Assembly (NCBI GenBank): GCA_002483345.1
Contig: DLHS01000015.1
Location: 41,117-105,116, forward strand
Direction: 5' to 3'
Source: Bacteroidetes bacterium UBA7662
Lineage (GTDB): Bacteria > Bacteroidota > Bacteroidia > UBA7662
DNA length: 64,000 nt
The notes under the pieces are model-generated. The model was given only the letters and a program-made list of their open reading frames with translations. It was not told where the DNA came from and did no database searches. Both the position numbers and the translations under genes were made by a program. This document shows positions 34,835 through 40,516 of the stretch, in pieces. Position 1 is the first letter of the stretch; every line of letters begins with the position of its first letter.

Positions 34835-34895
34835 TGTAAAGTTTACTTGTCAATATGTAAAGTTTACTTAACTTTGTAAAGTAAACTTGACAATC
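34835..34895 (+). promoter_or_regulatory. promoter/operator: three ~23-bp repeats TGTAAAGT(TT/AA)ACTTG(T/A)CAAT spaced 21 and 19 bp apart, overlapping a -33 TTG (34847) and -7 TAACTTTG (34869..34876)
   Basis: Direct repeats at 34835, 34856, 34875; the third copy carries the internal palindromic halves flipped; lies immediately upstream of the DUF2975-XRE operon. Confidence 0.5.
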
Positions 34896-35357
34896 ATGAA
34901 AACAAATTTGCTTTTTTCAAACCGTTTAAGGCCTTTTGGCTGGTTATTGTTGCTGCCCGGTCTGGCATTAGGGGTGGCACAGATGTACTTCGAGTTCGAA
35001 CTTACCTTCCTTGATTTCAGCAACAGCTGGCTGGAAAGAATTTATGTGAAGGATCTTTTTAGTGGTAATCTGAATTTAACGGATGAGTTGGCTGCCATCG
35101 GTATTATTGCCGGACTGATGGTACTGGTTTTTTCAGCAGAAAAACTGGAAGATGAATGGAGCAGCAGTCTGCGCCTGCGCGCCCTCAGCTGGGCGGTGTG
35201 GGTGCATTACGCGATCCTGACCATCGCTATATTACTGGTTCATGGAACTTCGTTTTTTAATGTGCTGGTCTACAATATCTTCACTTTATTAGTTGTTTTC
35301 GGGCTGAGATTCCGTTATCTGCTCTGGAAGGCAAGTCAAAGCGGGGAGGAAGCATGA
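34896..35357 (+). CDS. DUF2975-like small membrane protein
   Basis: 4 TM helices; conserved pairing with a downstream XRE regulator (4-nt overlap). Confidence 0.6.
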   Translation: MKTNLLFSNRLRPFGWLLLLPGLALGVAQMYFEFELTFLDFSNSWLERIYVKDLFSGNLNLTDELAAIGIIAGLMVLVFSAEKLEDEWSSSLRLRALSWAVWVHYAILTIAILLVHGTSFFNVLVYNIFTLLVVFGLRFRYLLWKASQSGEEA

Positions 35358-35557
35358 TTAATGCAGTGAAGCAGGCAAGGATGGAAAAGCAGCTCACACA
35401 AAGTGAGTTGGCTGTTTTGCTGGGGGTTTCCAGGCAAACCATTCATTCCATAGAGTCATCCCGCTATGTTCCTTCTACCGTTCTGGCGCTTAAGCTGGCG
35501 CAGGTGCTGGGAAAAGCTGTTGAACAGCTTTTCCAACTGGAGTCTTCTGATAGTTGA
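35354..35557 (+). CDS. XRE-family HTH transcriptional regulator (YozG-like)
   Basis: LTQSELAVLLGVSRQTIHSIESSRYVPS HTH. Confidence 0.85.
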   Translation: MINAVKQARMEKQLTQSELAVLLGVSRQTIHSIESSRYVPSTVLALKLAQVLGKAVEQLFQLESSDS

Positions 35558-37255: not shown

Positions 37256-37325
37256 GGGAGTGGAGATGGGAGTGTGGAGATGGGAGTATAAAGTTTTCTC
37301 TACTCTTCACGCTCCCATCTCCATA
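37256..37325. repeat. hairpin made of two tandem TGGAGATGGGAGT units plus one inverted copy, filling the convergent intergenic gap
   Basis: TGGAGATGGGAGTGTGGAGATGGGAGTAT ... GCTCCCATCTCCATA; ends 4 bp from the stop of the actin-like gene. Confidence 0.5.
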
Positions 37326-37328
37326 TTC

Positions 37329-38633
37329 CTACCAGGTTCCTGATATCAAAAACTTGTGAATGCGTTTGGTGGGAGCCTTTTCTACTGTTTTGGCTACTTT
37401 CGGAGCGGTTTCGGAAACAGTTTTTACGGTTGTGGCTACCGGCTCAGGAAAGGGACTTTCATCATCGATCAGGATTGCAGCGGGTTTGGCAGCAGGTTTT
37501 TCAACTTCAGCCGGTGCCTGTTTGGGTACTTCGGCAACTGGTGAGGCCTGACCATTGGTTTTTTCCTGCCTGGCGGTGGCTGCACCATTTACTTTGGGAG
37601 CGGCCTCCTGACTGTCGGCGTATAAGGTTACGATGGTGGTGGCATTGCCGATATCCAGACCAACGGCCATAGATTTATCACCGGTTGTTTCGAAAGAATG
37701 AATGCAATAGCCTTTGCTGGCCATGGCAGCCGGCTCATCGGGGATGACCAGATCGAGCACATCTTTGAATTCAGTACGGAATTGTTCCGCCAGATCTTCG
37801 TACATGGCACCACCTCCCACGAGGTAAAGTTTGTTGGCCCGCTGGAAGTCCGTGTCGAGGAAAGCACGCCGTAGTGCAGGCGAAATGACATCCTGGTAAT
37901 ATTGGGTCAGCGCCCGGGCACGGGCTTCTTTCAGATCAACCCGTTTGCGGCTGGCGAAGAGAAATCCTTTCTGGAACGCCACATCGATCTGGTGTTCGTT
38001 TTTAAGTTCGAGGTAATATTGACGACCTACTTCCTGCATCAGGAGATTTACGGCATAACGGAGTCCGTTGACAGAAACAGCGGTACGTTGCACGGTACCC
38101 GCTTCTGTGCTCAGTATCGCTTCACAAGTGCCGAATCCGAGACTCACCACAAAAAAGGAACCGCTGGCTGCCTGCTCTCCTTTGCGAAGTCCAAGAATAC
38201 AGCCTTGTATCTCAGGTATGATCTGCGCCTGCTCAACCTGTATCGGAATGTTTCGCCGCAAGCCGGTTGAATAGGTTGCAGCATCAAATTCGATGATGTG
38301 CTCCCGTTGAATAGCACTTACAGCCTGTTCCCGGTAGATAGGGTAGGTTGAGCTTGGGAAACCGCTTGATATGGTTAGTCTGGCTTTGTTGAGATGTTGA
38401 TTGGCCAGTAATAAACCAGATTTCAGCAGCAACGCATATTCTGTTTCAGATGGGGCAGAATTGATGTTTTTGTGCGGAGCAACACCTTCTGAAAGGGCGA
38501 GATCGCCTACAACATAAGCTCTTCTTTTTTCAAACAGTTTTAGCCCGTGTAAGAGGTCTGGTGCCACCTGACGTAACTCTGCATTGTTGCCTTCGATGAC
38601 ACTTGGGAACTGTAATACTTTGAACATAAGCAC
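37329..38633 (-). CDS. actin-fold ATPase of the ParM/AlfA-like family with apparently permuted phosphate-1 hairpin and disordered C-terminal tail
   Basis: Motif order in the 434-aa ORF: AYVVGDLALSEG (res ~40), FVVSLGFGTCEAIL (phosphate-2, ~165), KLYLVGGGA (~270), DEPAAMASKGY (~305), then MAVGLDIGNATTIVTLYAD (phosphate-1, ~322), then a P/A/K/E-rich tail. Confidence 0.55.
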   Translation of the reverse strand: MLMFKVLQFPSVIEGNNAELRQVAPDLLHGLKLFEKRRAYVVGDLALSEGVAPHKNINSAPSETEYALLLKSGLLLANQHLNKARLTISSGFPSSTYPIYREQAVSAIQREHIIEFDAATYSTGLRRNIPIQVEQAQIIPEIQGCILGLRKGEQAASGSFFVVSLGFGTCEAILSTEAGTVQRTAVSVNGLRYAVNLLMQEVGRQYYLELKNEHQIDVAFQKGFLFASRKRVDLKEARARALTQYYQDVISPALRRAFLDTDFQRANKLYLVGGGAMYEDLAEQFRTEFKDVLDLVIPDEPAAMASKGYCIHSFETTGDKSMAVGLDIGNATTIVTLYADSQEAAPKVNGAATARQEKTNGQASPVAEVPKQAPAEVEKPAAKPAAILIDDESPFPEPVATTVKTVSETAPKVAKTVEKAPTKRIHKFLISGTW

Positions 38634-38797
38634 TGATTAGGGTTGACAAGAATAGTTGGTTCGAACTGTCTCACAACAATACGAATTGTCAAATTAAGCA
38701 ATGATTAAGAAATTGTTCAAGTAAATTGGCCAATTTCTTAATTTTTTATACTCAGTCGCCTTTTGTGCTAGATGCTTACAATGAGCTTATTCCGTTT

Positions 38798-40128: not shown

Positions 40129-40498
40129 GGGGCTGACTGGAATCGACAGCTTGTATGAATACGCAGGTAAGCATGCGGAGCCTTGTACGGGAGCTCCTTA
40201 ATCTGAACGTTCAAGCCATAATCGGCGAAAATAACTACGCACTCGCTGCTTAATCCTAGGGATTAAGCGCAGTTGCTCCCTTCCTGACGGGCTGCTTAGC
40301 CGGGATATTGTGGAGCATCATTCATAAGCAGCTGGCCTGCGGTCTGCTCCTGACCAACGGTAAGAAACCAAAGAGCTAAGGGAAAACCTGGCAAGCCCGC
40401 CGGCCTGGTCTACCCCGACAATCAACGGCAGGATAAGCATGTAGAAAGCTTCCGGTTCGCTTGACTGGACCAGGGTTCGACTCCCTGCAGCTCCACCA
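40129..40498 (+). ncRNA. ssrA: tmRNA (transfer-messenger RNA)
   Basis: 5' GGGGCUGA... pairs with 3' ...CAGCUCCACCA (G3.U wobble). T-arm GGTTCGACTCC. In-frame tag reading frame ggc gaa aat aac tac gca ctc gct gct taa (40224..40253) encodes GENNYALAA*. 370 nt. Confidence 0.9.
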
Positions 40499-40516
40499 GA
40501 TTCAATCATCTTAATT

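Follow-up and report, generated by a model that had tools for sequence, protein, structure and literature searches.

A circularly permuted actin-like protein of the ParM/ALP branch in Bacteroidota and its bactofilin neighbours in related genomes

The gene and the order of its motifs

The analysed window, 64,000 nucleotides of contig DLHS01000015.1 from Bacteroidetes bacterium UBA7662 (assembly GCA_002483345.1), carries on its minus strand a gene for a functional-looking actin-fold ATPase of the ParM/ALP branch, the chain order of which is circularly permuted. The protein begins at strand beta3 (FPSVIE), and the phosphate-1 hairpin, AVGLDIGNATTIV, comes after the last helix. The reading frame found mechanically extends over 37329..38633 (-) and comprises 434 amino acids from a GTG start codon at 38633. 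The likely start is the ATG at 38627 (MFKV..., MFKVLQFPSVIE), two codons inside the GTG, which is also the start in the gene callers and in all homologs. Residues are numbered for the resulting protein of 432 amino acids; the 434-aa numbering is higher by two. The following features were assigned.

37329..38627, minus strand: whole gene of the circularly permuted actin-like protein, 432 aa from ATG 38627; stop codon at 37329-37331
38604..38624, minus strand: N-terminal strand FKVLQFP (continuing into SVIE), residues 2-8, equivalent to canonical beta3 according to the canonical profile and DSSP
38211..38216, minus strand: Pro-Glu, P138-E139; E139 invariant and P138 nearly invariant in 118 sequences
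38121..38150, minus strand: phosphate-2, VVSLGFGTCE, residues 160-169, aligned to canonical 'iiDiGfkTtD'
37809..37817, minus strand: adenosine-binding GGG, G271-G273 in LYLVGGGA, aligned to canonical 'ltGGGa', invariant or nearly so
37614..37670, minus strand: relocated phosphate-1 beta-hairpin MAVGLDIGNATTIVTLYAD, residues 320-338, beta1-turn-beta2, assigned by conservation, graft, doubling and AlphaFold2 (AF2)
37368..37613, minus strand: disordered linker rich in Pro/Ala/Lys/Glu/Thr, residues 339-420, with an AF2 confidence (predicted local distance difference test, pLDDT) of 43-51 and no secondary structure
37332..37367, minus strand: C-terminal motif KRIHKFLISGTW-COOH, residues 421-432, basic and aromatic, conserved across the long-tail homologs described below

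The protein had been noticed in a sequence-only reading of the window, and the landmarks described there were found in place: YVVGDLA at residues 40-46, VVSLGFGTCE at 162-171, LYLVGGGA at 269-276, DEPAAMASKGY at 299-309 and the hairpin MAVGLDIGNATTIVTLYAD at 322-340 (all in 434-aa numbering), the latter encoded at 37670..37614 and followed by a low-complexity Pro/Ala/Lys/Glu tail of 94 aa.

The unusual arrangement is not an artefact of the reading frame or of the assembly. An in-frame TAA stop codon at 38639-38637, directly 5' of the GTG, makes an in-frame N-terminal extension impossible. This stop codon and the common start of the homologs rule out that a normal phosphate-1 motif is hidden by an N-terminal extension or a frameshift. 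The window DNA is identical over 5.3 kb in two independent assemblies, Logan SRR5322582 and JGI 3300000271. Thus, misassembly, to which the sequence-only reading had pointed as a danger for its proposal, is excluded.

The motifs do not follow each other in the canonical order of phosphate-1, phosphate-2 and adenosine; phosphate-1 stands last, at residues 320-338 of 432. At the N-terminus the canonical profile pairs 'fkfpSvvg' with LQFPSVIE from profile position 24. The segment around P138-E139 was aligned to 'iPQplG' of canonical relatives, which carry P-Q at the catalytic position where the permuted family has P-E; we take the Glu to match catalytic E148 of R1 ParM (MPES) in position. In phosphate-2, S162, G164, G166 and E169 are invariant among the 118 sequences and T167 is nearly so. 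Whereas canonical relatives show D-i-G-f-k-T-t-D, the permuted family has S-L-G-F-G-T-C-E, in which an invariant Ser takes the place of the usual first Asp of the canonical DxGxxTxD and a Glu is the last acidic residue, as in MreB. SLGFGTCE hence lacks the Mg-coordinating Asp of the conserved phosphate-2 motif D-x-G-x-x-T. The adenosine motif GGG is kept, as in canonical relatives.

A linker of about 5 residues connects the last helix to the hairpin. The hairpin residues G323, D325, G327, N328 and T331 are invariant in the 118 aligned homologs; the Met with which the hairpin begins in the window sequence is not conserved. In place of the phosphate-1 motif D-x-G-F-G-x-x-K of canonical relatives the permuted family contains D-I-G-N-A-T-T (D, G, N and the second T invariant), a form that resembles phosphate-1 of MreB and Hsp70. 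This strict conservation of the active site argues for a working nucleotide site.

Profile alignments and predicted structure

The Pfam profile ALP_N (PF17989) matched the window protein above its curated cutoff (31.6 versus 26.3 bits), with residues 9-141 (434-aa numbering) aligned to profile positions 21-145 of 148. The N-terminus therefore offers nothing to pair with the first 20 positions of the profile. The sequence-only reading had stated that no phosphate-1 motif is present there. No meaningful match was obtained in NCBIfam. In a graft test residues 322-341 were placed before the native N-terminus and scored again with ALP_N. The grafted sequence reached 38.9 bits and was aligned over profile positions 1-145, whereas the controls (core only, scrambled hairpin and reversed hairpin) reached 30.8-31.2 bits and were aligned only from positions 19-21.

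For a doubling test the native and the tandem-doubled sequences of 21 family members were scored with a profile built from 31 relatives of canonical, unpermuted order. On the native permuted sequences the alignment started mostly at profile position 22-26, and at 39-49 in divergent ones. After doubling it started at position 3-8 and passed from the C-terminal hairpin of copy 1 unbroken into copy 2 in 20 of the 21 sequences. Each of these 20 gained 2-14 bits, about 10 within the core family. For the window protein the score rose from 113.6 to 124.3 bits (+10.7), and doubled residues 319-646 were aligned to profile positions 3-326. Across the junction 'mkvigvDvGfgftKvvsek...kefkfpSvvg' was paired with 'SMAVGLDIGNATTIVTLYAD-MFKVLQFPSVIE', the hairpin part being 'vigvDvGfgftKvv' opposite 'AVGLDIGNATTIVT'. 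The doubled sequences thus show what defines a circular permutant operationally, a contiguous profile alignment across the doubled junction together with a gain in score.

The profile of the family was also searched against 1.84 billion cluster representatives. Two classes were found among the relatives. In canonical actin-like proteins the hairpin, xIGxDxGFGxxK, is N-terminal and precedes FPSVVG by about 15 residues, and the chain terminates with the NxxGYxK helix. Permuted proteins lack a hairpin at the N-terminus and carry [IV]D[IVF]GN at the C-terminus. The permuted class includes deeply divergent subfamilies (P0180, P0195, P0204, P0205, P0210, P0213, P0220, P0244 and P0258). For the closest canonical relative, P0197, the gene context is limited to a contig of 1.7 kb and is uninformative.

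An AF2 model of the monomer was built with the 118-sequence alignment. The full model has a pLDDT of 82.7 and a predicted TM-score (pTM) of 0.76; the two hairpin strands, residues 321-326 and 330-336, have pLDDT values of 94 and 86. DSSP assigned a strand to residues 2-8 of this model. When the hairpin was deleted (residues 1-316), the whole core was kept, but the strand at residues 2-8 was no longer assigned and its beta-ladder was lost. The pLDDT of residues 1-30 fell from 93/72/87 to 82/58/69 and the remainder was unchanged. Since the hairpin is the only ordered segment removed, the N-terminal strand must be hydrogen-bonded to the hairpin in the full model, as canonical beta3 is with beta2. 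The models thus give good but indirect support to a hairpin that completes the central sheet of subdomain IA in cis. Such a placement, if correct, would bring the invariant Asp into the nucleotide pocket.

Fold comparison placed the predicted actin fold closest to ParM-type structures, with Dh-cParM1, pCBH ParM, CorM and BeeR as neighbours. Searching PDB sequences with the native and the un-permuted sequence gave no significant match; here fold comparison alone succeeded. Taken together, the graft, doubling and AF2 tests support the proposal of the sequence-only reading that this is an actin-like, ParM/ALP-type ATPase with its hairpin moved by circular permutation.

A loop of subdomain IB, EGVAPHKNINS(AP) at residues 47-57 (window ~38455-38490, minus strand), is nearly invariant in the family but was modelled by AF2 with low confidence (pLDDT 66-68). 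By analogy with the D-loop of actin it is a candidate inter-subunit contact.

The family, its bactofilin neighbours and its terminal extensions

A search of 5.8 billion proteins yielded 215 relatives. In alignments of 21 and of 118 sequences, down to 45% identity, every protein starts at the FPSVxE strand and G-x-D-x-G-N-x-x-T is invariant at the C-terminus; in the alignment of 21 the Ala before this motif is invariant as well. The relatives consequently share the arrangement, a point that the sequence-only reading had proposed to check, and judged by this conservation the C-terminal position of the hairpin is far beyond chance. The usual member is 338-352 aa long and ends 8-20 residues past the hairpin.

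When one genome per species was scanned, 214 genomes with a relative were found, 80 loci of which were fetched. All complete open reading frames (ORFs) of these 80 loci contain D-x-G-N. Carriers are Roseivirga, Cyclobacterium, Echinicola, Belliella, Lunatimonas, Sphingobacterium and Massilibacteroides as well as rumen Bacteroidales, a Chitinophaga metagenome-assembled genome (MAG) and Balneolales. The permutation is ancient and fixed in a chromosomal family of Bacteroidota (Cytophagales, Bacteroidales, Sphingobacteriales, Chitinophagales) and Balneolales. The permuted sequences form one clade opposite the canonical ones, which suggests a single origin of the permutation. In public databases the relatives are annotated as 'plasmid segregation protein ParM', as 'ParM/StbA family protein' or as hypothetical.

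In Roseivirga, Echinicola and Massilibacteroides a bactofilin gene (PF04519) lies directly 3' of the actin-like gene. The 80 loci were scanned with a profile built from the downstream ORFs, representatives of which were checked against Pfam; locus L059 was assigned by hand. A bactofilin was found directly downstream at 66 loci. It starts mostly between -14 and +31 nt from the stop codon of the actin-like gene, with five gaps of 113-314 nt. At four of the 66 loci a second, tail-less bactofilin lies upstream. The size of the permuted family and its usual pairing with a bactofilin are beyond what could be seen in the window sequence by the earlier reading. Among loci L003-L089 the following downstream bactofilins serve as examples.

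L003:7056-7523, bactofilin downstream of the actin-like gene
L006:6075-6608, bactofilin downstream of the actin-like gene
L008:6039-6590, bactofilin downstream of the actin-like gene
L059:5031-5597, bactofilin downstream of the actin-like gene

The partner bactofilins have disordered C-terminal tails that end in conserved motifs of aromatic residues with a final W-COOH (NYGxVAW, [YF]PR[TS]W or GWW). Several of them begin with an MFSKK-type N-terminal membrane-targeting sequence, which is known for bactofilins (PMC12448750). For BacP the same paper describes that a client binds to a motif of the disordered tail at the C-terminus. This points to a role for the tails of the partner bactofilins with their terminal W. 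Two apparent actin-like/bactofilin fusions (L047 and L076) turned out to be separate genes in the same frame with a stop codon between them. In the distant permuted members P0180 and P0205 small ORFs without a Pfam match come next, which may or may not be divergent partners. At L090:1716-4415 the divergent permuted protein P0132 is directly preceded by a 131-aa fragment of an M23 peptidase, with a bactofilin about 1.3 kb upstream. This neighbourhood links the family to the known bactofilin-M23 theme of cell-wall remodelling (PMC10945521).

The 14 loci without a downstream bactofilin comprise five long-tail loci, seven of rumen Bacteroidales and two contig ends. The window protein belongs to the long-tail clade of 26 sequences with 53-80% identity, which appears monophyletic and nested among bactofilin-linked clades in a neighbour-joining (NJ) tree without bootstrap. 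Its linker is variable among relatives and not conserved within the clade. In almost all of the 26 homologs this variable linker of 77-96 aa is followed by the pattern [KR]R[IL]x[KN]FLx[TS]GxW-COOH. For the window protein AF2 predicted a helix at residues 420-429 with a pLDDT of about 67, and the terminal peptide has a hydrophobic moment of 0.41-0.53 and a net charge of +2 to +3. From its sequence KRIHKFLISGTW is a candidate membrane- or partner-binding peptide.

When the profile of the partner bactofilins was compared with the window tail, no match was obtained at E <= 10; the only match among long-tail homologs, P0008 with an E value of 0.23, is insignificant. Homology of the window tail to bactofilin was rejected on this basis. 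Neither tblastn nor six-frame profile searches detected a bactofilin anywhere in the 64-kb window, so that for the window a bactofilin partnership is inferred from the relatives.

Extensions also occur outside the long-tail clade. P0121 has a Glu/Lys-rich C-terminal tail of 195 aa. P0115 and P0116 (L009) carry a Lys-rich N-terminal extension of about 110 aa and have no adjacent bactofilin. A clade of rumen Bacteroidales (MAGs L068, L079, L083-L085 and L087), likewise without an adjacent bactofilin, shows a conserved ...NLKFK-COOH end. Both new termini thus accept extensions, which fits a surface-exposed beta2/beta3 junction.

In two long-tail relatives, L007 (6568-10104) and L012 (~1174 aa), the next downstream gene codes for a secreted protein (about 1,175 aa) with the C-terminal end ...VKTVKVIF, which resembles a type IX secretion sorting tail. 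No such gene is found at this place in the window and the link to the actin-like gene is probably incidental.

Possible role of the protein and its surroundings in the window

The best overall explanation, which we hold to be probable, is a permuted ParM/ALP-type actin with a hairpin that closes the fold in cis, a cytoskeletal role, a link to bactofilins and, more tentatively, a tail that may act as a tether. The chain starts at beta3 of subdomain IA and continues through subdomain IB, the catalytic Pro-Glu and phosphate-2. Subdomains IIA/IIB, the adenosine GGG and the last helix come next, and the short linker (about 5 residues) then leads to the beta1-turn-beta2 hairpin containing D-I-G-N-A-T-T. 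By analogy with Dh-cParM1, pCBH ParM, CorM and BeeR we infer that the protein binds ATP and polymerises. It presumably serves as a cytoskeletal element and not as a DNA segregation motor. In most lineages it would act jointly with the downstream bactofilin, the gene order being evident from the relatives and the joint function deduced from it.

In FtsA, an actin-fold division protein, a flexible linker leads to an amphipathic helix at the C-terminus that targets the membrane. Like FtsA, the window protein consists of an actin-fold core, a disordered linker and a short, conserved, basic and aromatic predicted helix at the C-terminus. In the lineage of the window the bactofilin may have been lost, and the tail of about 80 residues with KRIHKFLISGTW might tether the filament to the membrane or to a partner otherwise bridged by bactofilin, in the manner of the FtsA linker and helix. 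We put this part of the explanation forward tentatively and hold it to be at best about as likely as not. Alternatively, the terminal peptide could dock on the actin-like protein itself, as the C-terminus of ParR does on ParM.

A broader proposal is rather unlikely. According to it the permuted actin-like protein and the bactofilin would form an unrecognised two-polymer cytoskeletal module of Bacteroidota and Balneolales, in which the W-terminated bactofilin tail docks a nucleotide-driven filament to a membrane-bound, nucleotide-independent scaffold. The permutation would then be adaptive, because it shifted the chain ends to the exposed beta2/beta3 junction, a place at which added tails leave the filament interfaces undisturbed. 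In the window lineage the adaptor would have been internalised as the C-terminal tail, so that a single gene makes up the module.

Several observations weigh against parts of the explanation that we prefer. In the active site an invariant Ser stands where phosphate-2 normally has its Asp, and the Lys found in phosphate-1 of canonical relatives is missing. Hydrolysis of ATP may consequently be slow or absent, and given the Ser its kinetics cannot be assumed. Pfam MreB-like_C (PF21522) stayed just below its cutoff for the window protein (26.4 versus 27.8 bits, E = 1.2e-5); many homologs carry a precomputed match to this profile. The placement of the hairpin beside phosphate-2 follows from pLDDT, DSSP and the deletion comparison instead of measured contacts, and polymerisation is deduced from fold neighbours and conserved motifs. 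Monophyly of all permuted sequences is weakly supported (NJ bootstrap 22/50). The terminal peptide is only moderately amphipathic, with a hydrophobic moment of 0.41. Finally, no bactofilin is adjacent to the actin-like gene in the window or in the long-tail clade.

Among the other explanations, an actin fold that does not form filaments, that is, a non-polymerising ASKHA ATPase or a nucleotide-binding regulator such as a chaperone-like or scaffold-bound factor on bactofilin, is unlikely but the most probable of them. Still less probable is that the hairpin acts in trans by insertion into a neighbouring subunit, the domain swap driving or stabilising an oligomer or filament. A central strand placed at the chain end on a short linker after permutation is a classic route to domain swapping, and the linker from the last helix to the hairpin in the AF2 model, which is a monomer, is indeed only about 5 residues long. 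However, this monomer model places the hairpin with a pLDDT of 86-94 at an overall pTM of 0.76, and the short linker length is conserved across the family. Since the C-terminal helix and beta1 belong to the same subdomain in canonical actin-like proteins, closure in cis requires no more than a short linker.

Two further explanations have next to nothing left in their favour. The hairpin might be a functionless remnant of a decayed, fused tandem gene, or an assembly or frameshift artefact, in which case the protein would be pseudogene-like. This idea drew on the Met at the start of the hairpin in the window sequence and on a weak echo of the N-terminus that the sequence-only reading had perceived in the residues after the hairpin (APKVNGAATARQ). 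The echo did not hold: the Smith-Waterman score of 19 does not differ from the shuffle mean of 19.6 (p ~0.5), and the resemblance is not conserved in a homolog of 79% identity. The Met is not conserved either, the two independent assemblies are identical, and the hairpin motif is invariant in the 118 homologs and in all complete ORFs of the 80 loci. No decayed second gene copy follows, since the chain of most homologs stops 8-20 residues past the hairpin. Judged by these conservation data the remnant explanation is already refuted. Just as improbable is a type II (ParMRC) partition ATPase of the ordinary kind that belongs to an integrated plasmid or other mobile element, as the public annotation of the relatives would suggest. 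Type II plasmid partition is characterised by an adjacent ParR, an iterated centromere and a mobile location. Near the window gene no ParR-like gene, iteron array or iterated centromere was found, which bears out the sequence-only reading on this point, and the flanks are housekeeping genes. A tblastn search against 72,556 plasmids and 50,697 phage records detected no copy, and the conserved neighbour in the relatives is a bactofilin, not a DNA-binding adaptor.

Known systems of the ParM type differ from the circularly permuted protein. Dh-cParM1 (PDB 8x1i; PMC12270681), CorM of the cyanobacterial CorMR system (PDB 9rmi; bioRxiv 10.1101/2025.06.27.661541) and BeeR (PDB 8r2n) are chromosomal ParM-like filaments of canonical order with phosphate-1 at the N-terminus, whereas in the permuted family the hairpin is C-terminal and Ser replaces the phosphate-2 Asp. 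CorM and classical ParM use a ParR-type adaptor, in place of which the permuted family has a bactofilin or a built-in tail. R1 ParM (4a61), pCBH ParM (6ixw), Alp7A (5ec0) and AlfA (6f95) from plasmids and archaeal Ta0583 (2fsj) are unpermuted, unlike the window protein. In contrast to plasmid ParM/ALP proteins, no centromere, adaptor, plasmid copy or phage copy was found for the permuted family. The bactofilin client systems BacA-PbpC, BacP-PadC-ParA and bactofilin with the M23 peptidase LmdC are described in PMC12448750 and PMC10945521. No actin-like protein was found described among known bactofilin clients or partners; the window locus itself is without a bactofilin.

In full-text literature searches, which cover only a minority of subscription-journal papers, neither a permuted actin-like protein nor an actin-like/bactofilin operon was found; the sequence-only reading had known of no such permuted protein. 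A paper on chromosomal ParM, two on bactofilins and a survey of circular permutations were consulted specifically and yielded no mention. The fold and the superfamily are known, and the chain topology and the bactofilin partnership appear to be the new part, for which a prior description is possible.

The beta-beta-beta-alpha-beta-alpha-beta-alpha order of the actin fold with an N-terminal phosphate-1 loop is treated as constant from sugar kinases to actin. A natural family in which the central strand and the phosphate-1 loop come last would allow fold assembly, re-threading of a nucleotide site and the sites for extensions on filament subunits to be probed. Profile annotation accepts the permuted proteins as "ParM/StbA" while it misses 20 active-site residues, and other permuted families may go the same way. 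The near-obligate pairing with bactofilin suggests that Cytophagales, Bacteroidales and relatives possess a cytoskeletal system that has yet to be studied; the mechanisms of shape and surface motility are poorly understood in these groups. For bactofilin research the actin-like pairing provides a new class of candidate client.

In the window the actin-like gene is flanked by an AlaDh-type dehydrogenase gene on the same strand, separated by a gap of 165 nt, and by a convergent acyl-CoA carboxyltransferase gene. Further housekeeping flanks are a transaldolase gene and the transfer-messenger RNA (tmRNA) gene 1.5 kb away. One additional feature was assigned between the convergent genes.

37260-37329, no strand assigned: long inverted repeat with arms of 20-25 nt, containing two copies of the tandem 14-nt repeat GTGGAGATGGGAGT, found by repeat search

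This repeat between the actin-like and the carboxyltransferase gene is probably a bidirectional terminator. About 65-115 nt before the start codon, at window 38704-38742, a 17-nt inverted repeat, ATTAAGAAATTGTTCAA / TTGGCCAATTTCTTAAT, with a 5-nt spacer was detected, which could be an operator. A scan for sigma-70 promoters found none, as expected for Bacteroidota.

The tmRNA gene was located at window 40129-40498 (+) between the peptidase S41 and AlaDh-type genes (Rfam RF00023, 135 bits). A 63-aa ORF at 40318..40509 (-) is an antisense artefact of this gene. At window 34887-35557 (+) the gene of a predicted membrane protein of 156 aa overlaps by 4 nt that of a 67-aa XRE-type helix-turn-helix (HTH) protein. 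The latter matched Pfam HTH_3/HTH_19 in the identical locus L001, and the two genes form a cassette unrelated to the actin-like protein.

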